In this document: positions 31,337 through 59,272 of the stretch, in pieces
Layout: every line of letters begins with the position of its first letter
Position numbering within the stretch: position 1 is the stretch's first letter
Translations under genes and position numbers: made by a program
Source of the DNA: Escherichia phage PHB11
Length of the DNA stretch: 64,000 bases
Sequence record: MK524176.1
Direction: 5' to 3' (one strand)
Notes under the pieces: generated by a model
Database searches by the model: none
Told to the model about the DNA's origin: nothing
Seen by the model: the letters and a program-made list of their open reading frames with translations, nothing else

Positions 31337-31592
31337 TAGTTATAAAAGAGAGGGGTTCATACCCTTCTTTGAAGAAAAAAGTTTAAATAAATTTCAGGAA
31401 GAGTGTTTGACAAAGATTGATAGGTTCTATAGAATGCTCCTCATGAAATGCGATGGTGAGGTTGCTATAAAAGAAGACTCCTACCAAAGCACGATTACAG
31501 TCATCATTACACTGCCTCAGCATAATATTAGTTGGCTGTTTATAATTAAAGAAAATGTGTTTGAATATCAAGTATATCGGAGAATATCATGA
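31299..31592 (+). CDS. Hypothetical protein
   Basis: 97 aa ORF overlapping the primase-helicase 3' end. Confidence 0.3.
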   Translation: MRMQMTARLKLSDSYKREGFIPFFEEKSLNKFQEECLTKIDRFYRMLLMKCDGEVAIKEDSYQSTITVIITLPQHNISWLFIIKENVFEYQVYRRIS

Positions 31593-31738
31593 AACACTCT
31601 AAAGCATTTGAAAAAGTTTTTGGGGATTCCTTAAAAGCCACTGCTGGCAAACCAGCAAAATACTATGAAGAGAAGCGTGTAAGAACTGGAAAAACTGCAC
31701 GCAAAGCAGCTTCTAAAGATAAGCACAACTTCCAGTAA
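31589..31738 (+). CDS. Small basic protein (not in ORF track, 49 aa)
   Basis: ATG at 31589 preceded by GGAGAA; translation MKHSKAFEKVFGDSLKATAGKPAKYYEEKRVRTGKTARKAASKDKHNFQ. Confidence 0.3.
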   Translation: MKHSKAFEKVFGDSLKATAGKPAKYYEEKRVRTGKTARKAASKDKHNFQ

Positions 31739-31745
31739 TTAATGT

Positions 31746-31774
31746 TTGACAATAGAGTATCAACAAATTAGAAT
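31746..31774 (+). promoter_or_regulatory. Near-consensus sigma70-type promoter upstream of the SSB-like gene
   Basis: TTGACA, 17 bp spacer, TAGAAT. Confidence 0.55.
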
Positions 31775-31810
31775 TGGTACTCTTCATAAATTGAGATAGA
31801 GGTTTAAATA

Positions 31811-32668
31811 ATGTCTAAAGTTGTTAAAATGAAAGCTCCGGTAGAGAAGTACAATGGTACTGAACGTCAAACTCTGCGTTACCTGCTGAAAGATGTTTGG
31901 TTTTATTACCTGAACACTTCACCACGTCCGGGAAAAGGTAAGTCCATTGATAAGAAATTCCCAGGAAAAGACTGCAACTACAGTGTTTCAATTCTGGCAG
32001 AAGACGGTAACAAGCTGTTTAAAGAATTTACTAAGTCTAAGAAAAACCCAGAAGGTTGGGATAAAGTTACTACTGAAGCGGTTGATGCAGACGACTTCGA
32101 AGAGAAGTTTGGTTGCAAACCACCATTTGAAGCAGACACTTACTACATCTTGAAAGTAAGTCGTGCAGCAGCTTATAAAGATGGTGCTGTGTGGACAGCT
32201 AAACAGTCATTCCCTGTAATGCTGATTGAAGAAGTAAATGGTAAGCGTGTAGCTGTTAAACAGCCGATGAAGAAAATCAAAGCTCAAGCATCTGATAAGC
32301 ATGAAGATGACAAGAACTATGATGTAATTCATCCAGATATTGCAGTTGGTAACGGTTCTTTTGGTAGTGTGATTCTTTCTACTCACTTCTACACCTTTGA
32401 GAACAATGTTCTGACAAAACCTATTCAGGAACAGTTTATCATTGATACTCTTGTACCTTACACTGGTGGTAACGGTGCTAATGGCGAACCTGAACTGGAT
32501 GAAGACGAACTGGCTATGCTTGGTCTTGATGGTGTTGAAGATAACGGTGAAATCACTGAAGAAGATGCAAAAGACCACAAACCTTCGAATGATTCTGATG
32601 ATGGTGACGATGAAGACTTGCCAGACCCAGATGACGAAGAAGATGAAGACTTCGATACAGAAGACTAA
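31811..32668 (+). CDS. Single-stranded DNA-binding protein (T7 gp2.5-like) candidate
   Basis: Highly acidic C-terminal tail ...DDEDLPDPDDEEDEDFDTED with aromatic residue; location in the replication module. Confidence 0.5.
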   Translation: MSKVVKMKAPVEKYNGTERQTLRYLLKDVWFYYLNTSPRPGKGKSIDKKFPGKDCNYSVSILAEDGNKLFKEFTKSKKNPEGWDKVTTEAVDADDFEEKFGCKPPFEADTYYILKVSRAAAYKDGAVWTAKQSFPVMLIEEVNGKRVAVKQPMKKIKAQASDKHEDDKNYDVIHPDIAVGNGSFGSVILSTHFYTFENNVLTKPIQEQFIIDTLVPYTGGNGANGEPELDEDELAMLGLDGVEDNGEITEEDAKDHKPSNDSDDGDDEDLPDPDDEEDEDFDTED

Positions 32669-32686
32669 TCTCTAAAAGTTACTTTA

Positions 32687-32715
32687 AAGCCCTGTACTTA
32701 GTATGGGGCTTTTTC
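32687..32715 (+). terminator. Intrinsic terminator
   Basis: AAGCCC-N13-GGGCTT hairpin followed by TTTTT. Confidence 0.5.
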
Positions 32716-32730
32716 ATATGGAGAGTCACA

Positions 32731-33771
32731 ATGGAGAAGTATACGCTAACAAAACTTCCCGATTCAGTTACACATGTCTTTATTGACTCTGACAGTATTG
32801 CCTATAAAGGTGCTTGTGTAGTTGAGAAAGCAAAATATAAATATGTCAATAAACTCACAGCAGAAGAATCTGAACCATTTGATAATGCAAAAGATGCCGC
32901 AAGATGGTTAGCAGACCAGAGAATCCTTGTAGAAGAGCTTGGCCTAGCATTTGATGAAGATGAATGGGAAAGACAGACTTGGAAAGAAGCTAAGAGTGAA
33001 AAAGAAGCTATCATGGCTACTCAGCAGGTTCTTCAGGAATGGCTTAAGGTTGTTGGTAAAGAAAGAACTTGGGTAGGTTACTTAACAGAGAAAGGTGTGC
33101 ATAAGCATAAAGACGTTAAAGGTCTTGAGCACCAATATCAAGGTAACCGTAAAGATGCTGTCACACCAACACACTTAGTTGCTTGTCGTGAATATCTCCT
33201 GTCAAGACCAGAGTTCAAACTCTTAAAGGGTGGCTTCGAAGCCGACTCAATCGTTATTGCTAAAGCTGAAAAGATGGGTAAGAAAGCTGCTCTTATGAGT
33301 ATTGACAAAGACCTTCGACAAGCTGAAGGTACTTATTGTATTGATATGACTTATGAAAAGTCACCACTAATTTTTATTGCTGATAATAATGTTGGTGATA
33401 TCTGGGATTGCCCTATCAAATCAAAACCAAAAGCTGCAAAAACAGTTGGTGTAGGTTTTAAATTCTTGTGTTATCAGGCTGTTGCTGGAGATAATGCAGA
33501 CAACTACTTCGGACTTAAAGGTGCTGGAAAAGTAGCTGTGATGAATGCTTTAGATGGTAAAGAGACTTATAAAGAGTGTCTTGATGCTATCTATGAACTC
33601 TATGCTAAAAAAGAGTCTTATACCTATGTATCATGGGATGGACAGACTGTTACCAAAACACCATTAGAGTTAATGGAACAGCATTTCTGGATAGCATATC
33701 AAGAGAGAAATCCAAAAGATAATTTCTCTTTTAAGAAATATAATTGGGAGCCGTGTATGAATGAAGATTAA
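32731..33771 (+). CDS. 5'-3' exonuclease (T7 gp6-like)
   Basis: Blocks VFIDSDSIAYKGA, MSIDKDLRQ and GDNADNYFGLKGAGKV matching the T7 gene 6 exonuclease pattern. Confidence 0.6.
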   Translation: MEKYTLTKLPDSVTHVFIDSDSIAYKGACVVEKAKYKYVNKLTAEESEPFDNAKDAARWLADQRILVEELGLAFDEDEWERQTWKEAKSEKEAIMATQQVLQEWLKVVGKERTWVGYLTEKGVHKHKDVKGLEHQYQGNRKDAVTPTHLVACREYLLSRPEFKLLKGGFEADSIVIAKAEKMGKKAALMSIDKDLRQAEGTYCIDMTYEKSPLIFIADNNVGDIWDCPIKSKPKAAKTVGVGFKFLCYQAVAGDNADNYFGLKGAGKVAVMNALDGKETYKECLDAIYELYAKKESYTYVSWDGQTVTKTPLELMEQHFWIAYQERNPKDNFSFKKYNWEPCMNED

Positions 33772-34258
33772 AGGATTTGGCAATTGCCCTACCTATGGTC
33801 ATTGGGTATCTTTATGTGGGGAAGTTGACCCCACTAAACATTTTGGTTTTGTCTATTTAGTACACTGTAAGAAGACCGGACAATATTATATCGGAAAGAA
33901 ACAGCTTAATAGTGTGACCAAAAGAAAAGTTGCTGGCAAGACTCGGAAGAAGGTAGTCACTAAGGAGAGTGATTGGGTGACTTATGAGACTTCTTCTGAG
34001 TATATTAAAAAAGATATTGAGAGCTTTGGAAAAGAATTTTTTGACTTTTACATTATCCAAACCTACTACACGAAAGGTGGTCTAGTTTATGGTGAAGCAA
34101 ACCTCCAACATAAATTCGATGTAATGACAAAAAGGATTGACTCTAAGCTCAGACTCTTCTACAATGCCAATATTGCAGCAATTAAGTTTATCACTAAAGA
34201 AACTTATGAAGATGCTGAAAAAAGAATCCATAAGGTAATGAAAGCAAATTGTGCTTGA
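33761..34258 (+). CDS. GIY-YIG-like (T5orf172-type) domain protein, possible nuclease
   Basis: N-terminal FGFVYLVHCKKTGQYYIGKK resembles the GIY...YIG motif pair; remainder unassigned. Confidence 0.35.
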   Translation: MKIKGFGNCPTYGHWVSLCGEVDPTKHFGFVYLVHCKKTGQYYIGKKQLNSVTKRKVAGKTRKKVVTKESDWVTYETSSEYIKKDIESFGKEFFDFYIIQTYYTKGGLVYGEANLQHKFDVMTKRIDSKLRLFYNANIAAIKFITKETYEDAEKRIHKVMKANCA

Positions 34259-34264
34259 TAACTA

Positions 34265-34510
34265 TTGAGAGAGAATAAAATGTTTAACAAAAGTAAAGCT
34301 GTGAGTCATGTAGCAAAGGTTGACAGCAAGATTGAAGAACTTGAGCGCATTCTTGCAAATGCCAGAGAGTCAATAATTAAAGAAGTTGAAGCTGTTGAAT
34401 CTCAAATGCAGCACCTAATGCTTAAACGTCAAGAGTTACGTGAGCATCTGGAATATATTGAAACACGAGAGCTAAAAGTTAACAGATTTTTAAGGAGTCC
34501 AAATGTTTAA
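34265..34510 (+). CDS. Hypothetical coiled-coil protein
   Basis: 81 aa ORF. Confidence 0.35.
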   Translation: MRENKMFNKSKAVSHVAKVDSKIEELERILANARESIIKEVEAVESQMQHLMLKRQELREHLEYIETRELKVNRFLRSPNV

Positions 34511-35258
34511 CTCAAGAGAATCAGTAAAAAACTGGAATCTTCGTTGCGGAAACACCCAAAAGCAACCTTACAGTGATGAGTATTGGGAATCTTTGAAATC
34601 CCAGTCTCTGTGTATGCTTGAAGAAGCGAAAGAGCTTGTAAAAGCAATTGAAGAGAAAGACCCCATTGAGACATTGGATGCTCAGGCAGATTTGCAATAT
34701 GTTCTTGACGGTCTAATTTATCTGTCACAACATGACCACAATGGCGCTATGGAAGCTGTTTGCCATAATAATGACCTGAAGTACACAGATGACTATGAAG
34801 AAGCTTTAAAACGTCTTGCAGATATTGAGAAGCGTACTGGTCAAGAGTGTATTATCAGAATGTCAGTAGTTGATGGTAAAGAGTGGTATGCGATTGTCCG
34901 TGCAGCAGATGGGAAGATTATGAAGCAATCAAATCTCCCTAAAGTACAGCTTGGTGAATACATTGTAGAGCTTGAAAGCCAAGAACTTTTTGTGGTAGTA
35001 TCTGAGACATGCGTTATCTGCAAAGGTATTGTAGGTAGCTTAAAGGATTTGGGTGTAGATGGTTTTGTAGAAGTTAATCCAATTACCTCTAAAGCAGATA
35101 AAGATTTCTGTAAAGAGAATGGACTATGGATTGCAGATATTGTCTACTACGATGGTGAGCAGTTCCATGTAACCTCATACCCGAAACTGAATTATGATGC
35201 TAATAACCTGAAGTGCTGGTTAAAAGGGGTTGGTTATGATGGATTCACAGAACATTAA
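34503..35258 (+). CDS. MazG-like nucleotide pyrophosphohydrolase domain protein (N-terminal third)
   Basis: EEAKELVKAIEE ... DAQADLQYVLDGLIYL resembles the MazG EExxE/ExxD helix pair; C-terminal 140 aa unassigned. Confidence 0.35.
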   Translation: MFNSRESVKNWNLRCGNTQKQPYSDEYWESLKSQSLCMLEEAKELVKAIEEKDPIETLDAQADLQYVLDGLIYLSQHDHNGAMEAVCHNNDLKYTDDYEEALKRLADIEKRTGQECIIRMSVVDGKEWYAIVRAADGKIMKQSNLPKVQLGEYIVELESQELFVVVSETCVICKGIVGSLKDLGVDGFVEVNPITSKADKDFCKENGLWIADIVYYDGEQFHVTSYPKLNYDANNLKCWLKGVGYDGFTEH

Positions 35259-35562
35259 TAAAGAAGGTGTGGCTCAGAAGAGCCACTTCTCAAACTACAA
35301 TATTTCTATGACGGTGTTTATGTATGACCCGTTACTTGAGAAGTATGGTGAGACTCCAGATACACTTCTGGATAATGAACAAGTTTTAAAAGCAGTCCTG
35401 TACAAATATGGGATTGATATTGAGAAAGAGTATTCCTTTGAAATCTGCCAACACAGAAATACTTTTGGTAAAGTTGTGATGGCTCCACTCTTCATGGGTG
35501 TAGAAAGAACTGACTATGGTTGGTTATATCTAAAAAGAAACTTGGAGAAATACCGTGTCTAA
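35230..35562 (+). CDS. Hypothetical protein
   Basis: 110 aa ORF. Confidence 0.3.
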   Translation: MVMMDSQNINKEGVAQKSHFSNYNISMTVFMYDPLLEKYGETPDTLLDNEQVLKAVLYKYGIDIEKEYSFEICQHRNTFGKVVMAPLFMGVERTDYGWLYLKRNLEKYRV

Positions 35563-35896
35563 AGCAAAAAAGTTATCTTATGATGACATTATCTCAGGTG
35601 CTAAGTTAGGTGTTGACAGTATCGGACAAGACGTTAAGCACGGAGACACAGTTATGTACTGTGATGACCGAAGAGGGAGAAGTGCAATCTTGTTTGGAAG
35701 AATTGTTTGCAAGATGCGAGGTAATTACGTTGTTGCAGACATGGATGTGAACGTTACACAAAAACTTGAAACACTTATGGATGATAATACATCATCATCA
35801 TGGTTCTTCCTGAATTGTATGCACACTTCTTCAGTCACAAAAGTAAGTGATAAGTTTTACGATATGTGGCAGAATGAGCAAATTTTCAAGATTTAA
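35555..35896 (+). CDS. Hypothetical protein
   Basis: 113 aa ORF followed by a terminator. Confidence 0.35.
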   Translation: MSKAKKLSYDDIISGAKLGVDSIGQDVKHGDTVMYCDDRRGRSAILFGRIVCKMRGNYVVADMDVNVTQKLETLMDDNTSSSWFFLNCMHTSSVTKVSDKFYDMWQNEQIFKI

Positions 35897-35902
35897 ACTA
35901 GT

Positions 35903-35925
35903 GAGCCTCTTCGGAGGCTCTTTTC
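35903..35925 (+). terminator. Intrinsic terminator upstream of nrdA
   Basis: GAGCCTC-TTCG-GAGGCTC hairpin followed by TTTT. Confidence 0.6.
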
Positions 35926-35942
35926 ATCTGTAGGATTCAAAA

Positions 35943-38177: not shown

Positions 38178-38232
38178 TTTTAATAACTATGAGGGTCGTA
38201 AAAGACCCTCTAAAATTAACTTTGGAGAAACT

Positions 38233-46084: not shown

Positions 46085-47866
46085 ATGACTAAATCACTTT
46101 ATGCAGTACCAGCAGGTTTAAACGCAGATGCTTACAAATCTGGTCACATTTACCAGTATCCTAGCGCAACAGAATACTTGATGTTCAACCTGACACCACG
46201 TAGTGATAAATGGTTTAACAGTCCTTTAGCAATTGACGGTGTGGTGGCTTTTGGTATTCAACGTTTTGTTAAAGACTACTTAATAGACCACTGGAACGCC
46301 ACCTTCTTCGAACGTGACAAAGAAGAAGCAATTGACGAAATCTTAGAAGTCATGAACGGTGTTCTGGGTAAAGATGCTATTGGCCGTGAACATTGGGAAG
46401 CACTTCACGACTTAGGTTATCTACCAGTTGAAGTATACGCTGTAGAAGAAGGCACAGTTGTTCCTATGCGTGTACCAATGATTGTCTTCCAGAACACTGT
46501 TTCAGGTTTCCATTGGGTAGCGGGGTATCTGGAAGATGCTTTCTCTGCTGAGATTTGGAAGGCTTGTACCATTGCAACTATTGCATTGCACTACAAACGT
46601 ATCTGTAAGAAGTGGTCTGACCTTACTTGTGATAACGACTTACATTTGCCTTATCAGTGCCATGACTTTGCTATGCGTGGTATGTCCGGCTTTACCGATG
46701 ACGCATTTAACGCTGTAGGCCACTTAACCAGCTTTAAAGGAACTGATAGCTTCCCTGCTGTATATACAGCTAAACGCATCTATGGACAGTCCTACCCAAT
46801 CTCTGATATTGGTAGCTCTGTACCAGCCACTGAGCACTCTGTAATGTGTGCAAACATTGCTTGGGAAGGTGGTAATGAGTTGATTGAAGAAGAAAGACGC
46901 TTTAAAGGTGAGTTACAGACCTTCCGTCGTTTCTTAACAGAAACTTACCCAACTGGTATTGCAAGTGTTGTTTCAGACACTTATAACTTTTGGAGAACTG
47001 TGTCAGAAATCTTACCAGCACTTCGTAAAGAGATTATGGAACGTGATGGCAAACTGGTCATTCGTCCTGACTCTGGCGACCCTGTACATATTGTCACAGG
47101 TTATAAAGCAATCCACTTAGAGTGTGCTAAAAAGGCTTATTACGAACACCTAAGCAAGCTGGAAGCCAGCGACACAATGCTGAATGCTGTTCTGAACATG
47201 AAGCTTGAAAACATCAACTATGGTATTGCTGGATGGCTACTGTCAGAAGGCTACGAAATGGTTGTTGACAGAGAAGACTTTGAAGTTGCTGATACAGTGC
47301 TGTTGAAAAATGCTTATATGGTTGGTTCTGCAAACGTTGTAACACGTCCTGTAGCAGAGATTGATGGGGCTATTAAGACCCTGTATAACATCTTTGGAGG
47401 GACTATCAACTCTAAAGGTTTTAAGGTACTGGATGAGCACATCGGCCTTATTTATGGTGACTCTATCACGTTGGAACGTGCAAACGAAATCCTTAAGCGT
47501 TTGTATGAAATGGGTTTTGCAAGCTCTAACGTAGTGTTTGGTGTAGGTTCTTACACTTACCAGTATATGACTCGTGACACCTTTGCATTTGCTGTCAAAG
47601 CAACTCTTGCAAGCATTGGTGGTAAAGAGATTATGCTTGCAAAAGACCCTAAAACAGATAGTGGTGTTAAGAAGTCTGCTTTTGGTGGTGTAGCACCTAT
47701 GTGGGATGGTGATAAGCTGAAAGCTGTAGATGGCTATGGATTCCAGAGCTTTGAAGATGTACTTGAGCATCCAGCTTGTGCTTTACGTTTAGTCTTTAGC
47801 GAATCTGAGCAGTTTGGCTACACAACTCTTGGTGATATTCGAAATAATATTGACAAGCAACTCTAA
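46085..47866 (+). CDS. Nicotinamide phosphoribosyltransferase (NAMPT) family protein; candidate Namat-like enzyme
   Basis: 593 aa with NAMPT signature block HLTSFKGTDSFPA and GDS-containing C-terminal region. Confidence 0.7.
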   Translation: MTKSLYAVPAGLNADAYKSGHIYQYPSATEYLMFNLTPRSDKWFNSPLAIDGVVAFGIQRFVKDYLIDHWNATFFERDKEEAIDEILEVMNGVLGKDAIGREHWEALHDLGYLPVEVYAVEEGTVVPMRVPMIVFQNTVSGFHWVAGYLEDAFSAEIWKACTIATIALHYKRICKKWSDLTCDNDLHLPYQCHDFAMRGMSGFTDDAFNAVGHLTSFKGTDSFPAVYTAKRIYGQSYPISDIGSSVPATEHSVMCANIAWEGGNELIEEERRFKGELQTFRRFLTETYPTGIASVVSDTYNFWRTVSEILPALRKEIMERDGKLVIRPDSGDPVHIVTGYKAIHLECAKKAYYEHLSKLEASDTMLNAVLNMKLENINYGIAGWLLSEGYEMVVDREDFEVADTVLLKNAYMVGSANVVTRPVAEIDGAIKTLYNIFGGTINSKGFKVLDEHIGLIYGDSITLERANEILKRLYEMGFASSNVVFGVGSYTYQYMTRDTFAFAVKATLASIGGKEIMLAKDPKTDSGVKKSAFGGVAPMWDGDKLKAVDGYGFQSFEDVLEHPACALRLVFSESEQFGYTTLGDIRNNIDKQL

Positions 47867-47880
47867 AAGTATATGATAAG

Positions 47881-47905
47881 AGGCTCCTACGGGAGCCTTT
47901 TTAAT
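47881..47905 (+). terminator. Intrinsic terminator
   Basis: AGGCTCC-TAC-GGGAGCCT hairpin followed by a T-run. Confidence 0.6.
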
Positions 47906-47919
47906 TTCTGGAGAAGATT

Positions 47920-48255
47920 ATGAAAATCAAAGAAATGAATATCAATATTGTCTTAGAAGAACGTTGGGAGAACATCAAGAAGCCTGAAAATGGTCATAAG
48001 TTCCTCAACAAAATCTTAGTAGCAGCTAAAGAAGAACTGACTGGCAAGGTTGCAGCAGCAATCACAATAAAGGTCTGTGTAAAAGGTCTTCCAGACAATC
48101 ACCAATTTGCACTTGACGAGTTTAAAGAAAGCTTCTACAATCCAAACAAACAGATGCTTGAAAGTAACTTTGCAGTATCTACAAGTATCGTCCATGACAG
48201 AAGCTTTATCCTTTACAAGAATATGAGAGGTGAGTCATGCAAGCATATTGGATAG
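47920..48255 (+). CDS. Hypothetical protein
   Basis: 111 aa ORF. Confidence 0.35.
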   Translation: MKIKEMNINIVLEERWENIKKPENGHKFLNKILVAAKEELTGKVAAAITIKVCVKGLPDNHQFALDEFKESFYNPNKQMLESNFAVSTSIVHDRSFILYKNMRGESCKHIG

Positions 48256-48414
48256 AAATTTTACTGTCACTTGGTAGTGTAGCAGTGTTTGTTTACCTTC
48301 TTTGCAAGTACTATGCAGAGCACAAAAAATGTGACTTCTGTAATGGAGAAGGTTATACAAGAGCAGGTTGTTGCCCTATGTGTGGTGGTTCTGGTAAAAT
48401 GTTTAATAAGTAAT
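48238..48414 (+). CDS. Small membrane zinc-ribbon protein (not in ORF track, 58 aa)
   Basis: MQAYWIEILLSLGSVAVFVYLLCKYYAEHKKCDFCNGEGYTRAGCCPMCGGSGKMFNK: hydrophobic helix plus CxxC...CxxC. Confidence 0.3.
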
Positions 48415-48441
48415 TTAACAGTAAACTAAGAGGAAAGTATT

Positions 48442-50808
48442 ATGCGCATGGTAAATGACCACGCAGAAGTGATTAAGAGTTCAACTTCTTTAGAGACATC
48501 TCAAGCACAGATTACAATGACACCTGAAATGTTCAGCCTTCTGAGTTCTGGTGTATATACCTTTAAAGAGCGAGCAGTAATTCGTGAACTGTCATGTAAC
48601 GCAGTAGATGCTCAGAAAGAAGCTGGAAAAGAGGACATCCCGTTCCATGTGCATTTACCTACTCGTTTTGAGCCTTACTTTGAAGTTCGTGATTTTGGAA
48701 CTGGATTGACTCATGATAAAGTTATGAGTTTGTATCTAAATTACGGGGCTTCTACGAAGAATGACTCTAATGATTACATTGGTGCAATGGGTATCGGTTC
48801 AAAATCTCCATTTGCAATCGCTCAGTCATTCACAGTATCTAGCTATGTTGATGGTGTTGTTAATAAGTACTCTGTTTACCTTGAGAATGGCATCCCTCAA
48901 GTAACTAAGCTGACCACCAACCCAACAAAAGAACCTAATGGTTTAGCTGTACGTGTAGCAGTTGCTGACCATCGTATTTCAAAGTTCTTTGAAGAAGCTG
49001 GTCACGTATACTCATACTTTGCTGTAAAACCAGAAAGTAATATCGAGTATGACGATGTATTAGCAGACATGAATGTCATTGCCCGTGAAGAAGGTGTTTA
49101 TGATGCCATGATTCACAAACAAAGCTGGCGTTCTAGTGGCAACAGGACAGAGTTTAATGTGGTGATGGGTAACATTGCCTACCCAGTTAACATGGAAGCA
49201 TTACTTGGTGATGATTTCTTCAAAGTCTTGCCAGAGTTTTTCCGTAGGAGCGTAGACCTTGTAAACATCTATATGCCTATTGGTTCAGTTGCTATTGCAG
49301 CTTCTCGTGAAGCATTGCAGATGAATGATACAACAAAAAATGTTATCATTGAGGCTACTAAAAAGATAACTGAAGCAATTACAAAGGATGTTATCAAGAA
49401 AGTTAATAGCCAACCTACACTCATGGATGCTGCACAGGCTTATGCTGAGTTACGTTTAAACTCACGAGAGATGTTTAATGCTGTGTGTCCAAAACTAGAG
49501 TGGGGAGGCGTTAAGCTTGATTCTTTGGAAGAAGAATTGCTAAACATTCGTCGTGGAATTATCTACGCAGAAGACGGCTCAGTTATCTATGAACGTGATG
49601 GTAAAGGTAATATTAAGGTTGATAGGAACGGAAACAATATCCCTAAAGTAGATTATCTTTATAATCCAGTTGCTTATGTTAAGTTCAACTCTTTAGAAAG
49701 TAAGATTCGTGCAACAGCACTTTCCTACACTCAAGAGGCAAGTATGTTCAATATCTTTGGCGCAATGCGTAAAAGTCAAATTGAACAGTTTTTGTTTGTT
49801 ATAAATGACCGTCGCAATAAAAATGGTACTGAGAAGACTGTAGGACGCAATCAGATTCTGCGTGGTGCATGTCGAGACTATGCCAGCGAGTCAAGTCTGT
49901 TTCACAGATACAATGGTATTGTCTTTGTATTCTCTAATGAGGAAGAGCTAGATGATTTAATCAATCTGCACAAACTTGATAAAAGCTTGTTAAAGATTGT
50001 GAAGATGTCTGATAAGGAACATCATTATCAGCGTAAAGAAGCTGTAAGAGGTGTTGTAAAACTTTGGAAAGCTGTTCCAGCAGAAGGTGTAGCTTCATAC
50101 AAAGAGGTGTCAGAAGACTTAGATACGATTGAGGAGCCTCAGCTTTATATTAAGGCAGTAGGCGACACAGTTGATGGCGAATGTTTTTGCTCATCTCCAG
50201 AAGATGTAGCTAAGTCAGTTGCCAATGTCATTGGAAAGACAGTATATGTTTTCCGAAAAGCAAATTGGAAAAAGATACCAGAAGACTGGATTGAAGTAGA
50301 TGAGAAGCTCTTGAACGACAGCTTAACTGATGTTCACTGGATTAATCATAACAGGTATATGACACGTATCTATATGAATGGTGTCCTAGACCTGACAAGC
50401 AGTTGGATTATTGCCAGAAACTTTACGTTCAATAACAGGAAGATTTCTCGTGGTTATTGCTATTCACGAGACACAAACAAAACTATCTTCTTAGAAGGTA
50501 ATGAAGATGCTGTTGAGGCAATGTTTGGTAAAATCCAATACGTTGCTGCACCGTTTGCATACACTTATACTGTTAGCAGGTTGCAAACTTTGAAAGAATG
50601 CCTTGACAATGATACAAAGCTGTACAAGAAAATCAAGAAAGCTGGTGACCGTATGGTCATTAAGGTGACAAACTATCTTTCAAAAAGAAAACAAGAAAAC
50701 TTCTTGCTTTCTCATTTAGATTGGAATAAAGTGTCACCCATCGAAGTGAGTAAGTTCTTAGGCTTTGATGTGAAGTGTGTTCCAGAAGGGACTACAATTT
50801 ACGATTAA
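48442..50808 (+). CDS. rIIA: rIIA-like protein with GHKL-type ATPase domain
   Basis: Bergerat-fold boxes RELSCNAVDA (N box), DFGTGL (G1), GAMGIGSKS (G2); followed by an rIIB homologue. Confidence 0.6.
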   Translation: MRMVNDHAEVIKSSTSLETSQAQITMTPEMFSLLSSGVYTFKERAVIRELSCNAVDAQKEAGKEDIPFHVHLPTRFEPYFEVRDFGTGLTHDKVMSLYLNYGASTKNDSNDYIGAMGIGSKSPFAIAQSFTVSSYVDGVVNKYSVYLENGIPQVTKLTTNPTKEPNGLAVRVAVADHRISKFFEEAGHVYSYFAVKPESNIEYDDVLADMNVIAREEGVYDAMIHKQSWRSSGNRTEFNVVMGNIAYPVNMEALLGDDFFKVLPEFFRRSVDLVNIYMPIGSVAIAASREALQMNDTTKNVIIEATKKITEAITKDVIKKVNSQPTLMDAAQAYAELRLNSREMFNAVCPKLEWGGVKLDSLEEELLNIRRGIIYAEDGSVIYERDGKGNIKVDRNGNNIPKVDYLYNPVAYVKFNSLESKIRATALSYTQEASMFNIFGAMRKSQIEQFLFVINDRRNKNGTEKTVGRNQILRGACRDYASESSLFHRYNGIVFVFSNEEELDDLINLHKLDKSLLKIVKMSDKEHHYQRKEAVRGVVKLWKAVPAEGVASYKEVSEDLDTIEEPQLYIKAVGDTVDGECFCSSPEDVAKSVANVIGKTVYVFRKANWKKIPEDWIEVDEKLLNDSLTDVHWINHNRYMTRIYMNGVLDLTSSWIIARNFTFNNRKISRGYCYSRDTNKTIFLEGNEDAVEAMFGKIQYVAAPFAYTYTVSRLQTLKECLDNDTKLYKKIKKAGDRMVIKVTNYLSKRKQENFLLSHLDWNKVSPIEVSKFLGFDVKCVPEGTTIYD

Positions 50809-52014: not shown

Positions 52015-52036
52015 GGCTGCTTCGGCGGCCTTTTTT
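52015..52036 (+). terminator. Intrinsic terminator after rIIB
   Basis: AGGCTGC-TTCG-GCGGCCT hairpin followed by TTTTTT; a TATAAT hexamer follows at 52061-52066. Confidence 0.55.
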
Positions 52037-52097
52037 ATTTGTATTTTGTGCAGAGTGCTGTATAATTGTTGTCACGATAAACTAAACAGGAGAACCA

Positions 52098-53319: not shown

Positions 53320-53329
53320 GAGAAAACTT

Positions 53330-53794: not shown

Positions 53795-53805
53795 GGTTAA
53801 GATAC

Positions 53806-53829
53806 AGGCTCCTTCGGGAGCCTTTTTCA
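53806..53829 (+). terminator. Intrinsic terminator
   Basis: AGGCTCC-TTCG-GGAGCCT hairpin followed by TTTTT. Confidence 0.6.
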
Positions 53830-53846
53830 TTTCAGGAGATTGTTAA

Positions 53847-54194
53847 ATGACATTTAAAGAGTTCTGCCAAGCTACTTTCATAATTGTTTTCTTAGTTGGA
53901 GCAGGTGTCTGGGGAGGATACTCTTACAGAGACTACCAAGTTGCTGAAGCTGAGCTAAATAATGAGAAACTAATAAGTGTTGCTAAAGATGCTTATCAGG
54001 AAGGTTTAGCCACACTCAGCACCAATTACAAAAATGATTTGAAAGACGTGCTTGCTAAGAATAAGCACACAAAAGAGGTACTAACATATGAAAAGACTAA
54101 GCCAGAGTTTTATAATGTTTGTGTTACTGATAATTATGTCAGGGTGTTCAACGAACAAAGTGAACAGTACATTCAAAAACTCCCAAGTAAGTGA
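53847..54194 (+). CDS. Inner-membrane spanin (Rz-like) candidate
   Basis: N-terminal TM helix FIIVFLVGAGVWGGYSY followed by periplasmic coiled-coil; overlaps an out-of-frame lipoprotein ORF. Confidence 0.45.
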   Translation: MTFKEFCQATFIIVFLVGAGVWGGYSYRDYQVAEAELNNEKLISVAKDAYQEGLATLSTNYKNDLKDVLAKNKHTKEVLTYEKTKPEFYNVCVTDNYVRVFNEQSEQYIQKLPSK

Positions 54195-54357
54195 GGGTGA
54201 CAAGTACACTCAAGAAGAGTCAAGATTCACTGTCAAAGGTAATACTGGTAGTGATGTGGCAGCAGCCCTTGAGTTTTATCGTGATGGTTTTTACCAGTGC
54301 ACAATCAAAGCTAATAACCTTATTGACATGATTTTATTAGGGAACAAACAGCAATGA
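54088..54357 (+). CDS. Outer-membrane spanin (Rz1-like lipoprotein) candidate, overlapping the i-spanin gene
   Basis: Signal peptide with lipobox-like IIMSGC; start embedded in the 3' part of 53847..54194 in another frame. Confidence 0.45.
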   Translation: MKRLSQSFIMFVLLIIMSGCSTNKVNSTFKNSQVSEGDKYTQEESRFTVKGNTGSDVAAALEFYRDGFYQCTIKANNLIDMILLGNKQQ

Positions 54358-54623
54358 CAGAGAATGAAGACACTTTCTATGTAGAAGGGTACTTACTGCT
54401 ACCACGACCAAAAGAAACTTATATGCGGGTTGATTTCTCACCAACCATTATGGACAACGTGATGTGTCATATCTTTATGCAAGGTGTCACAGCACAGCTT
54501 AAGCATGTTGGTAAAGAGTGTAAAATAAAGGTTGACACTCATCCAGAAATCAAAGAGAATCACTACACATGGTTCTTACCAGACTCTAAAGAAATCTTAG
54601 CAGTTCTTAAAACGAGGAAGTGA
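54354..54623 (+). CDS. Hypothetical protein
   Basis: 89 aa ORF. Confidence 0.35.
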   Translation: MTENEDTFYVEGYLLLPRPKETYMRVDFSPTIMDNVMCHIFMQGVTAQLKHVGKECKIKVDTHPEIKENHYTWFLPDSKEILAVLKTRK

Positions 54624-54952
54624 CTATGCAGATTAACGGAAGAGATTTTGTAGCCGTTTACTACGAGAAAGATAAAGAAGTTGGCGTAGCACAAGTATCT
54701 TATGGCAATGGTAAGTGGTTGTATGGGACAATCGCAGTAGTTGGAACAAGAAGTGATACAAAAACTTTTAAAGATTGTGTTGACCTTCTTGAAGAATCCA
54801 TCCACAATCATTGGTGTCTGATATGGATGACTGACAACGAAGTGATAGAACGCTTCAAAAAGATTGGTATCAACATTGATAGTATTGAGCATGTTGATTT
54901 ATACGAACTAACTGAGAAGGTAAACTATGAGAGTAATACTAGCCAGAGATAA
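54620..54952 (+). CDS. Hypothetical protein
   Basis: 110 aa ORF. Confidence 0.35.
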   Translation: MTMQINGRDFVAVYYEKDKEVGVAQVSYGNGKWLYGTIAVVGTRSDTKTFKDCVDLLEESIHNHWCLIWMTDNEVIERFKKIGINIDSIEHVDLYELTEKVNYESNTSQR

Positions 54953-55160
54953 AAAGACCCGTAAGATTGTACGTTCAGCAGTATTCATAGGGAGAGATGA
55001 AGTCGTCCCGTTTGCAGGGGAAGATGTGCTAACTTATAAGAAGGGTTTAAAACGTAAATTCAGTGACCGTTTACGTGGCTTCATCTCTGAACCATTAGAA
55101 GATTTCAAAAGTCGCTGTGGCGAAGGCATCATCATTCAAGAGGCAATTATTCATGGCTGA
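54927..55160 (+). CDS. Hypothetical protein
   Basis: 77 aa ORF. Confidence 0.3.
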   Translation: MRVILARDKKTRKIVRSAVFIGRDEVVPFAGEDVLTYKKGLKRKFSDRLRGFISEPLEDFKSRCGEGIIIQEAIIHG

Positions 55161-55353
55161 TTTCTGCAAAGATTGTGCTATCGAAATGTTTGGACGTGAT
55201 ACAGGTGACTTAAAAGGTCTTATCACTGAAGATGACTTTAAAGCTGGTTATGCAATGCCAGTAATCTGTGAAGGTTGTGGATGTATCTGGGTAGACCACG
55301 AAGGACAGCGTGTAAAACCTTCAGAAGATAAAGAATCTTGGGAGAGATGTTAA
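55153..55353 (+). CDS. Small zinc-ribbon protein
   Basis: MADFCKDC...ICEGCGC; start at internal ATG with AAGAGG upstream (track start 55117). Confidence 0.3.
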   Translation: MADFCKDCAIEMFGRDTGDLKGLITEDDFKAGYAMPVICEGCGCIWVDHEGQRVKPSEDKESWERC

Positions 55354-56139
55354 ATGGGTATTGTAAAAATTATCAAAGGCAACATCTTTGACGCATTTGA
55401 TAAAGGTAAGTTTGATATCATTGGTCATGGTTGCAACTGTATGAATTTCATGGGTGCAGGTATTGCAGCAACTATTTCTAAGCGTTATCCAAAAGTATAT
55501 GATACTGATACAGAAGTTTACCTGTTTGCAGGTGGTATTCGTCACAAACCATGTGAAAATCTGCTAGGTAATTTCTCTGTAACACGTTTAAAACAAGGCC
55601 GTATAGCCAATCTTTACACCCAGCTTCATACCGGTAAAGATGCCCGATATAGTGCTTTAGAGTCATCTTTGAAACAGCTTAACAGATACTGTGAAGTTAA
55701 TCAGTTGAAGAAAGTTGGGTTACCTATGATTGGTGCAGGTATCGGTGGACTAGACCCTCAAGCCGTCACAGTTATCATTAATCAGGTGATGAAGAGTGTA
55801 GATGTTTACCTGTATGTCTATGAGACAGAGATGTACAACGAGTTACACTCAGGTTGGAAGAACTACTGTGAACCAGAATACTTTGCAGGTGTAGTAGTGT
55901 TCACTGATGATGCAGTTACCCTCTTCAGACGAAGAAAAGGCAAGATACATCAAAGTAACCCTCCGGTTGAAAAGATGTCTCTAAGTAACGCTCTAGTTAC
56001 CCACCTGTCGAAGAGCAATCACAGAATTGCAGTAACATTTGGCAGTGATGCAGATACATATATCTATGCAAGAACTGATGAGGATATCGAGACGGTCTTC
56101 TCTTCACCGGAAGTAACCTTCTTAGACGCAAAGAACTAA
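55354..56139 (+). CDS. Macro-domain protein (ADP-ribose binding/processing) with C-terminal extension
   Basis: Macro-like blocks IIKGNIFDA, DIIGHGCNCMNFMGAGIAATI and VGLPMIGAGIGGLDP. Confidence 0.55.
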   Translation: MGIVKIIKGNIFDAFDKGKFDIIGHGCNCMNFMGAGIAATISKRYPKVYDTDTEVYLFAGGIRHKPCENLLGNFSVTRLKQGRIANLYTQLHTGKDARYSALESSLKQLNRYCEVNQLKKVGLPMIGAGIGGLDPQAVTVIINQVMKSVDVYLYVYETEMYNELHSGWKNYCEPEYFAGVVVFTDDAVTLFRRRKGKIHQSNPPVEKMSLSNALVTHLSKSNHRIAVTFGSDADTYIYARTDEDIETVFSSPEVTFLDAKN

Positions 56140-56207
56140 GAAACTCTGTAGAATATTCACAATAGGTTAAGCCTTTCTTATCTGGTAAATTTTTCAGGTA
56201 AGGAGGG

Positions 56208-56406
56208 CTTTTTCATTTCAGGATTGTGCAGGTAGAGTTCTGGACAGAAATCTGTAGAGAAAATTTTGAACTCCAAAGAGAAAATTCATTTTCAAACTGT
56301 GCAGGTAATCTCCAAAGAGCTTTTTCATTTTCAAAACGTGCAGACCCCGCTCAGGTCGGGCAAGAAAAATCATTTTAGAATTGTGCAGGTAGGTGGGTGC
56401 AGGTGG
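56208..56406. repeat. Iteron-like direct repeat array in non-coding DNA
   Basis: Four to five copies of TTCATTT(T)CA-N4-5-TGTGCAGGTA (TGTGCAGGTA at 56225, 56298, 56382; degenerate CGTGCAGAC at 56337; GTGCAGGTG at 56397); adjacent 38-39 bp tandem pair starting CTCCAAAGAG at 56271 and 56310. Confidence 0.6.
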
Positions 56407-56568
56407 GGATGTCGCCATTTCTCACAAGGCTACCACATCTGAAAAGAAAAGTCAACAGAAAAATTTGTAGCGGATTGAAAAATAATTCTTGATTGTAGTT
56501 CTGTTTTGTGGTAGTCGCGTGCGCCCGTTTCATTACAGTTTTTGCAAAAAATATTTTTAAAATTCCTA

Positions 56569-56597
56569 TTGACTCTTTGAATATGGTTATCTAATAT
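56569..56597 (+). promoter_or_regulatory. Sigma70-like promoter for the first early gene
   Basis: TTGACT, 17 bp spacer, TAATAT, about 50 nt upstream of ATG 56648. Confidence 0.45.
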
Positions 56598-56647
56598 TTG
56601 CATCAGACGGGCAATCAAGCCCACTTCCTAAACTGGAGAATCAAAAA

Positions 56648-56854
56648 ATGCTTTACAGTCGTGAATTGATGGTTACAACTAACGTTAACACAAAGGTAAA
56701 ACGTTTTTATATGCAAGTGTGCGGCGCATGGCGTAGAATATCAGAAGCTGACTATTGCAACTATGTAGAAACGGCTATTAATTCTAATTGCTACCTTACA
56801 ATAAACACTAAGAAGTTTACAAGACAGACAGCAATTTACTACTACGATAAATAA
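56648..56854 (+). CDS. Small early-region protein, unknown
   Basis: 68 aa; TIR CCTAAACTGGAGAATCAAAAAATG. Confidence 0.4.
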   Translation: MLYSRELMVTTNVNTKVKRFYMQVCGAWRRISEADYCNYVETAINSNCYLTINTKKFTRQTAIYYYDK

Positions 56855-56945
56855 AAAAGTACTTTACAGGGGGCTTAAAAGCTGATATCTTAAGCCCCAG
56901 ATAAAGAGCTTTACTAAACTAACCCTTAAACTAGGAGATTCAAAA
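56855..56945 (+). promoter_or_regulatory. Early cassette, class A
   Basis: AAGTACTTTACA, hairpin GGGGCTTAA-N11-TTAAGCCCC (TTTACA-17-TATCTT overlaps it), AGATAAAGAGCTTTAC, TIR ...CTAGGAGATTCAAAAATG. Confidence 0.45.
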
Positions 56946-57326
56946 ATGGCTTATCGTGCACCTAAATTCATCAACAAAGACAACTTTCGCAACGCACTGG
57001 AGAAGTCACTTGATGAAAATTTTAAAGGTAATATTATCGTTGTTCACGCATTCAATTTTAAGTATGATGTAAACGGGAATAGAATCAACCATTACACAGC
57101 AACCATGTTAGATGGTACGCTATCAAGTGAAAAAGCTGTACTGAATGCACTTGCAGGACGTGGTAAAAACCTGATAAGATGCGATAAGAGACGTTATCAG
57201 GGTGGCGCATATGGTTATGATGATGCTGTTTATCATCTTGAAAATATGGGCTATTCAGTGGAAAAAGCTGGAGTGTCTCAAATAATCGGCAGTGACGGCT
57301 ATGTGACAATTTTCAAAATTAACTAA
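56946..57326 (+). CDS. Small early-region protein, unknown
   Basis: 126 aa ORF preceded by a class A cassette. Confidence 0.45.
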   Translation: MAYRAPKFINKDNFRNALEKSLDENFKGNIIVVHAFNFKYDVNGNRINHYTATMLDGTLSSEKAVLNALAGRGKNLIRCDKRRYQGGAYGYDDAVYHLENMGYSVEKAGVSQIIGSDGYVTIFKIN

Positions 57327-57414
57327 TAAAGTACTTTACAGGGGGCTTATAGTTCGATAAAGTAAGCCCCAGATAAAGAGCTTTACCACTAAATCCTAAA
57401 TTGGAGATTCAAAA
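57327..57414 (+). promoter_or_regulatory. Early cassette, class A
   Basis: TAAAGTACTTTA palindrome overlapping the upstream stop, GGGGCTTA...TAAGCCCC hairpin, conserved TIR. Confidence 0.45.
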
Positions 57415-57705
57415 ATGGCTATTATTAAAAACGTTGTAATTCCTGCAAAAACTCGTGATGACGCTCGCATCATGGCGAAAAAGTTAGGCGGGAAAGTGGT
57501 TGACAACGGAAAACAAACTGCTGTAAGGTGGAACGTGAAGGCGGATAAACAAATGAATTTAAAAAATTCACCAATAAACCTTTTTACATGTGTAAACACT
57601 ATCGGGAAAACGAATGTATACACTAAAAAGGCATATATCAGACGCATCGCCATGACGTCACCTATTCGCACAATGAGAAGTCATGCAAAGCTGAAAATTA
57701 AGTAA
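57415..57705 (+). CDS. Small early-region protein, unknown (basic)
   Basis: 96 aa ORF preceded by a class A cassette. Confidence 0.45.
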   Translation: MAIIKNVVIPAKTRDDARIMAKKLGGKVVDNGKQTAVRWNVKADKQMNLKNSPINLFTCVNTIGKTNVYTKKAYIRRIAMTSPIRTMRSHAKLKIK

Positions 57706-57795
57706 TAGAGTACTTTACAGGGGGCTTAAAAGCTGATATCTTAAGCCCCAGATAAAGAGCTTTACCACTCAATCCTTAAACTAGGAGATTCAAAA
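57706..57795 (+). promoter_or_regulatory. Early cassette, class A
   Basis: GAGTACTTTACA, GGGGCTTAA...TTAAGCCCC hairpin, conserved TIR. Confidence 0.45.
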
Positions 57796-58308
57796 ATGAA
57801 AACTGTAGACGCTACCTTTGAAGTTGTAAAAGAAAAATTTTCCATCATTTACGAAGCTGTCAATTGCTACGAAGCAAGCCATAATCTTGATAATTGGAAG
57901 TTTACAGATGACCATCAAGGCGGTGTGACTATTAAAAACCCCAACTGTCAGCGTAATGGATTTAAATATGCAATTCCTTTACATTACAGCCTTAAACAGC
58001 TTTCAATTGACTATGCAAAACAAGGCCGGGAAAATCCATCGAAAGAGGCTTACATCAGCTTACAGAAAGAACTAGAAAGAGATTTAGAGGCTTCAGAATA
58101 TAACATCGCCGCGAAAGTTGTAGATGCAAACGGTAGCACGGTTTTAGAGAGTTTTTATATTGGTTATGCTTTCGATTGGTGCTACAGTGACGGCGATGAT
58201 TTAGATGACAGACTAAAAGAGGAAGTGAACAACGCAGACGCAGAATCTGAAGTATTAGAACGCTTGGAAGCATTAAAAGATTCAGTGATGAATATCTTTA
58301 AGAACTAA
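57796..58308 (+). CDS. Small early-region protein, unknown (acidic C-terminus)
   Basis: 170 aa ORF preceded by a class A cassette. Confidence 0.45.
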   Translation: MKTVDATFEVVKEKFSIIYEAVNCYEASHNLDNWKFTDDHQGGVTIKNPNCQRNGFKYAIPLHYSLKQLSIDYAKQGRENPSKEAYISLQKELERDLEASEYNIAAKVVDANGSTVLESFYIGYAFDWCYSDGDDLDDRLKEEVNNADAESEVLERLEALKDSVMNIFKN

Positions 58309-58399
58309 ATAGATTTCTTTACACGGGGCTAACAAGCGGATATGATAGCCCCAGATAAAGAGATTTATCAAATTAACCCTTAAACTAGGAGATTCAAAA
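58309..58399 (+). promoter_or_regulatory. Early cassette, class A variant
   Basis: TTTACA, 17 bp spacer, TATGAT with compensating hairpin GGGGCTA...TAGCCCC; conserved TIR. Confidence 0.45.
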
Positions 58400-58696
58400 A
58401 TGAAATTATCAAATAAAGTTAGGGAAAACCTTAGCAAATTACTCAACAAAATTGATTTTATAGAGACATCAAGGAATAGTCATGATGTTATGGAATGGTT
58501 ACACGGCAAAATAAAAGGCCGTCGTGTAGTGATTTGCTTATGGAATAGTTGCAGGGAGTATAAAAAGCCTGTATTGCAAATTAATGTTTATGATGATACT
58601 TTTAAAAGTCCTGTAAAGTCTAAAAGCGATTTATTAGAATCCTATGAGATAACTGTAAATGGCAAAGTATCACGTAAAGAGGAAACACCATGTTAA
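58400..58696 (+). CDS. Small early-region protein, unknown
   Basis: 98 aa ORF preceded by a class A cassette. Confidence 0.45.
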   Translation: MKLSNKVRENLSKLLNKIDFIETSRNSHDVMEWLHGKIKGRRVVICLWNSCREYKKPVLQINVYDDTFKSPVKSKSDLLESYEITVNGKVSRKEETPC

Positions 58697-59022
58697 TGAC
58701 TGGTATCACTGCAATCATTGCCATTTTCGCGCTATATAAGGCATATAAAGCCTATAATCTAGCAAATAAGGCAATCACACAGCAAGTTAGCAATAACCTT
58801 GTAGAGAGCTTTCTAGGGCGTTTAAGTGATGAGCAAATAAAGCGGCTAGAGATGAGCTTCAGATATAAAGCGAAAACCTATCAGATAAGTGACATCTTCA
58901 AAGATGATTTCCAGTTAGTTGATGATTATAATTCTCTGATAAATGCTTTAAACATCAGTGACTTGAAAGACTATCACGCTGTAATTGTTCAAGAATTGAG
59001 CAAACGAAAACAAAGTGTTTGA
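58690..59022 (+). CDS. Small early-region protein, unknown
   Basis: 110 aa ORF overlapping the upstream stop; N-terminal hydrophobic helix. Confidence 0.4.
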   Translation: MLMTGITAIIAIFALYKAYKAYNLANKAITQQVSNNLVESFLGRLSDEQIKRLEMSFRYKAKTYQISDIFKDDFQLVDDYNSLINALNISDLKDYHAVIVQELSKRKQSV

Positions 59023-59113
59023 CACTGATTTTTAGATAGGTTAAATTACACATCAACGGGGAGGGGATGACCTTCCCCACTAAATAAAGTCCTTAAACTA
59101 GGAGATTCTAAAA
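59019..59113 (+). promoter_or_regulatory. Early cassette, class B (promoter, 5' UTR hairpin, TIR)
   Basis: TTGACA, 17 bp spacer, TAAATT, ATCAACGGGGAGGGGATGACCTTCCCC hairpin, ACTAAATAAAGTCCTTAAACTAGGAGATTCTAAAAATG. Confidence 0.5.
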
Positions 59114-59272
59114 ATGTTTTGTGCAGGTGATAAAGTTGTCTGGAATGATATAGATGACGGTTTATGTACGAAAGTTGTTGTTATCTTAGAAATTGATTAT
59201 ATCACTGGTGTTGCAACTGTAGCAGATAATGATATAATCTTTGATGTCTTAATTAGTGAACTGTCAAAATAA
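59114..59272 (+). CDS. Small early-region protein (not in ORF track, 52 aa)
   Basis: ATG right after a class B cassette; translation MFCAGDKVVWNDIDDGLCTKVVVILEIDYITGVATVADNDIIFDVLISELSK. Confidence 0.4.
   Translation: MFCAGDKVVWNDIDDGLCTKVVVILEIDYITGVATVADNDIIFDVLISELSK

Follow-up and report, generated by a model that had tools for sequence, protein, structure and literature searches.

The 64,000-nt stretch of Escherichia phage PHB11 DNA studied here (record MK524176.1; hereafter the window) carries three small open reading frames (ORFs) of 49, 58 and 52 amino acids (aa), which we name ORF1, ORF2 and ORF3 and which escaped the ORF track of a first, sequence-based reading of this DNA (the initial annotation), whose cutoff was 60 aa. 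The window regions around them match 213-275 phage records by megablast, mostly at 90-99% identity and classed as Felixounavirus, i.e., the Felix O1-like myophages of the subfamily Ounavirinae, whose hosts are Escherichia, Salmonella and Shigella; more than 190 Felixounavirus records reach 95-99% nucleotide identity. ORF1 is located in the replication block, ORF2 in the nadV-ORF130-ORF131-rIIA-rIIB block and ORF3 in the early small-gene region; all three lie on the + strand, as do the signals, motifs and upstream gene described with them. Our results indicate that they are very probably ordinary, genuine Felixounavirus protein-coding genes falling under the 60-aa display cutoff, the biochemical roles that we propose for them being inferences.

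Each of the three ORFs has a Shine-Dalgarno-type motif before its ATG, and the initiation signals claimed for them in the initial annotation are therefore present. A codon-usage log-likelihood score trained on the long ORFs of the window reached 0.43 bits/codon for ORF1, 0.27 for ORF2 and 0.33 for ORF3. The long genes of the window had a mean score of 0.33-0.36, their 50-codon windows a mean of 0.36 and a 5th percentile of 0.14, and the control set of 65 spurious ORFs (40-70 aa, nested in long genes) had a maximum of 0.18. Since their scores are in the range of long genes and above all 65 spurious ORFs, the three ORFs are not chance frames. Purifying selection was also detected in all three frames by comparison with relatives, and the test initially suggested for them, conservation of the frame in related genomes, was passed (ORF1 open in 34/34 loci, ORF2 in 28/28 sequences, ORF3 in frame in two alleles). 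A search for paralogues of the three ORFs within the window gave none, and a word-indexed search of 5.8 billion proteins returned only close Ounavirinae relatives for each of them. The initial view that these genes were missing holds for the first-stage ORF track and not for public annotation; because GenBank relatives annotate all three as coding sequences (CDS) of hypothetical proteins, the omission concerns that track alone. Their annotated counterparts are Felix O1 ORF103, Felix O1 ORF131 and, for ORF3, WWT49444.1 of vB_EcoM-LTH02. ORF1 and ORF2 fall without peculiarity into phage protein families that are already annotated, and ORF3 is annotated in genomes carrying it; the finding on the three small genes is thus already known.

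ORF1 (31589..31738) starts with an ATG located 4 nt (TATC) after the Shine-Dalgarno sequence GGAGAA (31579..31584), of which GGAG is kept in relatives. The position, length, basic character and initiation signal given for it at first are exact, the protein having an isoelectric point (pI) of 10.2 with 14 lysines and arginines among 49 residues. Its ATG overlaps the TGA stop codon of the upstream 93-aa gene (31311..31592; homologue of Felix O1 ORF102, phrog_4982), and such an ATGA stop/start overlap is the classic arrangement expected for translational coupling; ORF1 is consequently probably translated by coupling. It is the homologue of Felix O1 ORF103 (YP_001504375.1) and of Bas63 g54, and aligns over its full length with phrog_4424 (E=7.4e-36, residues 1-49 on positions 1-49 of a 49-position profile). 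The annotated CDS of relatives are identical in length to ORF1, and no material difference separates it from this family, with which it shares the size of 49 aa, the place between ORF102 and ORF104, and 98-100% identity within the genus. Matches were obtained by tblastn in 262 phage records, with an identity of 82-88% in Mooglevirus and Suspvirus (first 34 residues) and of 62% in Pectobacterium phage Wc4-1. The loci used for comparison (28 IMG/VR loci plus GenBank relatives, including Wc4-1) were fetched via the neighbouring 285-aa gene, a choice that avoids any bias towards loci with an intact ORF1. The homologue occurs in the same gene order in Wc4-1 and Moogle. Within the genus, differences are mostly synonymous, and variable columns are distributed as 19/17/40 over the three codon positions. 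Against the Mooglevirus-/Suspvirus-type and Pectobacterium homologues, synonymous divergence (dS) is 0.75-2.2 and nonsynonymous divergence (dN) 0.14-0.46, giving a dN/dS of 0.08-0.22.

ORF2 occupies 48237..48413. Its 58 aa, transmembrane (TM) helix and CxxC...CxxC pattern (CDFC...CPMC) had been recognised in the initial annotation, which placed it one nucleotide too far downstream; read as translated, 48238-48414 gives stop codons. An AGAGG motif stands 6 nt before the ATG, the first 19 nt of the frame are shared with the 3' end of the upstream 111-aa gene, and it stops 28 nt before the start of rIIA. A promoter-like TTGACA-16-TATGAT with a terminator-like hairpin after nadV (47850..47901), identified by consensus match only, precedes ORF130-ORF131-rIIA-rIIB. 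ORF2 is the homologue of Felix O1 ORF131/gp131 (NP_945023.1, 'hypothetical membrane protein') and of Bas63 g83, and matches phrog_3931 over its whole length (E=2.4e-33, residues 1-58 on positions 1-59 of a 59-position profile). As for ORF1, there is no material difference from the known family: the size (58 aa), the place between ORF130 and rIIA, and the sequence (98% identity with Felix O1) agree. Matches by tblastn were found in 261 records. Among loci fetched via rIIA, 27 from IMG/VR include the region and make up, with the window, the 28 sequences in which the frame is open; dN/dS is 0.03-0.41. In the GenBank records matching 47900-48460, the homologue is annotated inconsistently. It is absent from several of them (with one hypothetical protein beside rIIA). 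Many others label it 'membrane protein', whereas phage Mushroom has it as 'heat shock protein' and GEC_vB_B1/NS7 as 'baseplate distal hub protein'.

In ORF2, a single TM helix is predicted at residues 5-23 (WIEILLSLGSVAVFVYLLC, encoded by 48249..48305; Kyte-Doolittle 19-mer score of 2.11) and is followed by KYYAEHKK, and two CxxCxGxG motifs (CDFCNGEG ... CPMCGGSG, residues 32-53, encoded by 48330..48395) correspond to one DnaJ-type zinc centre. Among homologues that are 45-100% identical, the four cysteines are invariant, as are the glycines of the motifs apart from a single locus with one G-to-D change. The positive-inside rule applied to KYYAEHKK, together with the reducing compartment that a cysteine zinc site needs, would place the finger on the cytoplasmic side, which suggests an N-out/C-in topology.

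ORF3 (59114..59272) is an accessory early gene for an acidic protein of 52 aa (pI 4.05) that is predicted to be all-beta. Its initially reported coordinates are exact, and the cassette with a conserved translation-initiation region (TIR) said to precede it is indeed a repeated element. A sigma-70-like early promoter, TTGACA-17-TAAATT (59019..59047), which corresponds with a few bases of difference to the 39-bp repeat of Felix O1 (PMC3185647), is followed by an 8-bp G+C-rich stem-loop (GGGGAGGG/CCUUCCCC; 59058..59078) situated between the promoter and the TIR. The upstream TIR copy (AAATAAAGTCCTTAAACTAGGAGATTCTAAAA; 59082..59113) serves ORF3 and contains its Shine-Dalgarno sequence AGGAG (59100-59104), 9 nt before the ATG. 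The downstream copy (59267..59297) serves the following 90-aa gene and forms with ORF3 a 185-bp unit that is absent from most relatives. By tblastn, ORF3 matches 25 phage records, compared with 213 Felixounavirus-type records matching the surrounding region. Of the loci fetched via the 90-aa gene, 25 from IMG/VR were informative, and ORF3 is present in five of these and in the window. Its neighbours are in every case the same two genes, of 110 aa and 90 aa, whose separation is ∼90 nt without ORF3 and ∼275 nt with it. The alignment shows that in ORF3-less genomes the promoter, stem-loop and TIR lead directly to the ATG of the 90-aa gene, and that the 185 bp added in ORF3-bearing genomes consist of ORF3 plus a second TIR copy, with junctions inside the repeat AAATAAAGTCCTTAAACTAGGAGATTC.

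Published data bear on the expression and the necessity of these genes. A reverse transcription PCR survey of Felix O1 found transcripts for all 102 ORFs tested, with ORFs 130, 1 (rIIA) and 104 at 25 min and ORF 105 at 5 min (PMC3185647). In PhageMaP, barcoded knockouts of Bas63 (MZ501086) were scored for fitness, a negative value marking essentiality (bioRxiv 10.1101/2024.10.10.617714); the portion of that preprint on which we draw covers S17-1 and MG1655, two of its four laboratory hosts, and QatABCD as the defence. Bas63 g54 is identical to ORF1 at 48/49 residues and g83 to ORF2 at 57/58, and Bas63 is without ORF3. The scores of g54 were +0.51/+0.79/+1.32 on S17-1 and +0.72/+0.67/+0.37 on MG1655, and those of g83 were +0.25/+0.11/+0.48 and +1.27/-0.07/-0.17, respectively. 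The genes g52 and g55 flanking g54 scored from about -0.8 to -1.2 on S17-1 and from about -2.1 to -2.4 on MG1655. The mostly positive scores of g54 and g83 indicate that, in this part of the data, both small genes are conserved yet dispensable.

A number of observations weigh against reading the three ORFs as functional genes of the kind proposed. Their gene status is deduced from sequence, and the list of ORFs in the Felix O1 transcript survey does not include 102, 103 or 131 (PMC3185647). In the PhageMaP data used, the g54 and g83 knockouts have no clear phenotype on S17-1 and MG1655, and on cells with QatABCD the g83 knockout retains full fitness, unlike those of rIIA and rIIB. Three singleton database proteins (P0003, P0005 and P0006; 63 aa each) are frameshifted versions of ORF2 that pass into the +1 frame at three different points (window 48289..48429); they may reflect errors of sequencing or else genuine losses of the zinc finger that arose independently. 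As for ORF3, its coding evidence consists of two divergent alleles only, and its AlphaFold2 model, made of four beta-strands, is of low confidence (predicted local distance difference test, pLDDT, of 55).

Alternatively, ORF3 could be a non-coding spacer, born from TIR duplication or cassette recombination, in which a frame is open by accident. Such an origin would fit with its absence from ∼90% of Felixounavirus records, with its poor structure model, and with the lack of any PHROG or Pfam family, only three clusters being found in the database of 5.8 billion proteins. However, a complete TIR stands before ORF3, with a spacing between Shine-Dalgarno sequence and ATG within one nucleotide of that of the other nine copies, its codon usage is gene-like and above that of all spurious ORFs, and annotators of several genomes called it as a CDS. 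Moreover, of the 159 nt of ORF3, 27-28 (17%) are changed in the alleles of SME50 and HMD-P10 relative to the window, yet no more than 10-11 residues are affected, mostly by exchanges among V, I and L, without indels or stops and with a dN/dS of 0.17. When the same transitions and transversions were placed at random, an equal conservation without a stop was obtained in 0.04-0.1% of 20,000 trials (p ∼4e-4 for the 27-nt comparison). We thus regard the spacer explanation as unlikely. The SME50/HMD-P10 allele is 17% divergent in its 5' two-thirds and shows far fewer differences in its 3' third. No fold can be assigned to the ORF3 protein, since the pLDDT is low and Foldseek found no PDB match below E=2 for the model; a PDB search by sequence was likewise negative, and an SH3-like barrel, guessed from the sequence, is unsupported.

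For ORF2, the position beside rIIA raises the question of a common function. An ORF with a TM helix and two CxxCxGxG motifs is found directly upstream of rIIA in five Ounavirinae lineages (Felixounavirus, Mooglevirus, Suspvirus, Erwinia phage phiEa21-4 and Pectobacterium phage Wc4-1). In Wc4-1 it is a 52-aa ORF (MVLKTLGFIALVLVGLYIYF...CSRCQGTG...CPDCQGTG), and in phiEa21-4 it is gp117, a protein of 54 aa encoded by the last gene before rIIA (...LNILLVLVIVGGLLAA...CKHCDGTG...CPFCQGTG). A tblastn search with ORF2 detected no similarity to these two ORFs of the same architecture, and the arrangement predates what sequence similarity can reveal. This constant neighbourhood, and the apparent inclusion of ORF2 in one operon with rIIA behind the promoter-like site matched by consensus, would be expected if membrane protection by RIIA/RIIB depended on ORF2 as an obligate third member of the system, a role in concert with RIIA/B that we favoured at first. 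The Bas63 data on QatABCD cells speak against such an obligate role, with scores of -1.26/-1.30/-1.61 for g84 (rIIA) and -1.05/-2.46/-2.45 for g85 (rIIB) and of +0.77/+0.66/+0.81 for g83 (bioRxiv 10.1101/2024.10.10.617714). The ORF2 homologue is thus not needed for the rIIA/B-dependent escape from QatABCD in that screen, and adjacency to rII implies no shared function, at least there. In addition, T4 rIIA.1, the gene at the equivalent position that we checked as a positional analogue, is unrelated to ORF2, and the closest relative outside the subfamily (Krischvirus, RB49p046-like, a weak match) is not adjacent to rIIA. An obligate rII partner is therefore improbable. ORF2 is apparently co-transcribed with rIIA/rIIB and is separable from them genetically and, probably, in function.

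A second role suggested for ORF2 is that of a holin or of another lysis-timing protein. Indeed, gp131 is one of the five small membrane proteins proposed as holin candidates of Felix O1 (Whichard et al., PMC3185647), and ORF2 has the single TM helix and charged, lysine-rich tail of such proteins as well as a place beside the rII 'lysis inhibitor' genes. It is, however, encoded between nadV/ORF130 and rIIA rather than beside an endolysin, the lysin of Felix O1 being gp35, located elsewhere. Its C-terminal domain is a cysteine zinc finger, implying a cytoplasmic location, and the flanking ORF130 and rIIA peak at 25 min, in the middle and not the late period (PMC3185647). In the PhageMaP data consulted, the g83 knockout was fit in pooled screens that score fitness rather than the timing of lysis; lysis/membrane genes are reported there as mostly non-essential, and genes labelled as holin score as non-essential too. 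The holin labels of that study, obtained by BLASTp, are on other genes (g29 and g153). Taken together, the data weaken both readings, and a holin is unlikely.

ORF2 is most likely a bitopic inner-membrane protein whose half DnaJ-type zinc finger would face the cytoplasm and serve as a zinc-dependent module of protein-protein interaction; from its architecture, we infer that ORF2 tethers this module to the membrane. Among PDB sequences, ORF2 aligns best with 1exk, the cysteine-rich domain of DnaJ (E=0.013), and with 3lcz, anti-TRAP (E=0.47). The match to PF00684, the central cysteine-rich domain of DnaJ, scores 14.9 bits (E=0.032) under a gathering threshold of 32.7 and covers only the last 25 profile positions, and that to anti-TRAP PF15777 scores 9.2 bits (E=1.6) under a threshold of 32 bits. 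These low Pfam scores result from the presence of half the DnaJ domain: where DnaJ has four repeats and two zinc centres, ORF2 has two repeats (C32-G39 and C46-G53), enough for one centre. The likeness to both proteins lies in the two CxxCxGxG motifs and their similar spacing, and the motif is conserved, with nearly invariant glycines, in the 28 ORF2 sequences and in Wc4-1 and phiEa21-4. Bacillus anti-TRAP, with its ∼53 aa, is also organised around a single zinc site of this type. ORF2 differs from DnaJ in having two of the four motifs, no J domain and a fused N-terminal TM helix. In view of this half-domain, the sub-threshold scores and the TM fusion, the motif is common to ORF2, DnaJ and anti-TRAP without making ORF2 a family member. 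An exhaustive HMMER search of 1.84 billion representatives with ORF2 returned 21 matches. Besides orthologues, these comprise long proteins in which the CxxCxGxG unit occurs 4-7 times and a few small, unrelated ones combining a TM helix and a zinc finger, and no annotated family was among them.

For ORF1, it is hardly credible that the region is kept for overlapping regulatory DNA or RNA (promoters of the downstream essential gene) and not for its protein: although two 11/12 sigma-70-like sites flank it (31407-31435 and 31746-31774) and the knockout of its homologue g54 is dispensable in the Bas63 data used, both sites fall outside ORF1, its substitutions are protein-like (third positions vary twice as often, with the low dN/dS given above and saturated dS), and its length changes are in whole codons and confined to the C-terminus. 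Of these two near-consensus sites (TTGACA-17-TAGAAT, 11/12), the first is within the 93-aa gene and the second in the 72-nt gap before the 285-aa gene. ORF1 would rather be a translationally coupled, non-essential, basic and helical accessory protein of the replication module, its block running in the order primase/helicase, ORF102, ORF103, essential 285-aa protein and exonuclease. AlphaFold2 predicts three helices with a pLDDT of ∼80 at the conserved N-terminus and a mean of 69, which offered no fold worth searching, and ORF1 has no Pfam match and no PDB sequence match. The protein probably binds nucleic acid or an acidic partner. For the neighbouring 285-aa protein (31811-32668; ORF104 homologue), neither Pfam nor the PDB nor functional PHROGs gave a match. 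Its last residues form a strongly acidic tail (DDGDDEDLPDPDDEEDEDFDTED) like those of phage single-stranded DNA-binding proteins (SSB), and the tail may resemble that of T7 gp2.5 SSB. Its Bas63 homologue g55 is strongly essential in the data used and carries in PhageMaP the BLASTp-derived label 'DNA helicase/primase' (bioRxiv 10.1101/2024.10.10.617714).

ORF3, if a gene as we believe, would encode a small acidic early accessory protein, the first behind an early promoter, a stem-loop and a TIR. Its early, promoter-proximal place, its acidity and its patchy distribution fit with a host- or defence-specific takeover factor, a role that seems plausible on these grounds. The common allele of ORF3 shows 0-1 nt differences among six genomes; the flanks in the same genomes (58690-59022 and 59298-59570) have a mean identity of 94.6% upstream and 91.7% downstream. 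This pattern suggests that the ORF3 cassette spread laterally and recently, and the 185-bp unit could be gained or lost by homologous recombination between the flanking TIR copies. As a tentative extension, which we consider possible but doubtful, ORF3 might be a laterally spreading early 'plug-in', that is, a beta protein that would neutralise a strain-limited defence or factor of the E. coli/Salmonella host and move by recombination of TIR repeats in the manner of promoter-early stem-loop (PeSL) cassettes; in parallel, ORF2 might counter a membrane-acting defence other than QatABCD. A plug-in spread would account for near-identical ORF3 DNA in genomes whose backgrounds diverge by 5-8%. Upstream of ORF3, the 110-aa gene (58690-59022) encodes a hydrophobic N-terminal segment and lies among dispensable early genes. 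Its Bas63 homologue g103 is essential or near-essential on MG1655 (-0.9 to -1.8 in the data used), and the label 'tail tube protein' that it bears in some records looks doubtful.

The TIR is not restricted to ORF3. The window contains 10 copies against a chance expectation of 0, and each is closely followed by the start of an ORF. Between 56840 and 62900, two classes of repeated intergenic cassettes both end in this TIR (CCTTAAACTAGGAGATTCAAAAATG, 10 copies). The first class has TTTACA and then a hairpin, GGGGCTTAA...TTAAGCCCC, that overlaps the promoter, and the second has TTGACA...TAAATT and then the hairpin GGGGAGGGG...CCTTCCCC; the class to which the ORF3 cassette belongs has 5 copies in 56.9-62.9 kb. 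Repeats very similar to these intergenic cassettes were reported in Felix O1 (Whichard et al., PMC3185647). In the TIR at 59090-59103 and in the other nine copies, UCCU is able to form a stem with the Shine-Dalgarno AGGA, closing a loop of 6 nt. The predicted conserved mini-hairpin could sequester the ribosome binding site of every early cassette gene, or act as a common operator. Other direct repeats occur in the window at 56204-56388 (34-nt units spaced 39-45 nt), at 63544-63617 (a family with a 22-nt period) and at 63688-63981 (CACTTGTTAGCAACTTGTTA-type).

In practical terms, this work illustrates that real phage genes disappear from view under an ORF cutoff of 60 aa and that public annotation of these small genes is uneven, although the practical point is small. 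Besides, it offers two leads, neither of which changes current understanding. The first is a membrane-anchored half-DnaJ zinc finger that is kept beside rIIA subfamily-wide and is dispensable for the one rII phenotype tested. The second is the presence, in the early regions of Felix O1-like phages, of repeated PeSL-like cassettes that apparently move a 52-aa gene between genomes.

To conclude, the comparison with PeSL elements calls for some precision. These mobile regulatory cassettes were described in T4-type phages (Arbiol et al. 2010, PMC2839356; Comeau et al. 2014, PMC4122927), in descriptions where Felix O1-like phages are not mentioned; promoter and terminator activity and excised mini-circles were addressed there by reporter assays and by PCR on phage DNA (PMC2839356). 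The window phage differs from them in belonging to Felixounavirus (Ounavirinae) and not to the T4-type phages, and the ORF3 junction differs in falling in the Shine-Dalgarno/TIR part of the repeat, with a downstream copy devoid of promoter and stem-loop. The likeness lies in composition and in the bounding of gene indels: by sequence, the window has repeated intergenic elements that unite a sigma-70-like promoter and a G+C-rich stem-loop with the Shine-Dalgarno sequence and start of the next small gene, these cassettes are clustered among small non-essential ORFs, and, as exemplified by the ORF3 unit, presence or absence of a gene is bounded by the repeats.

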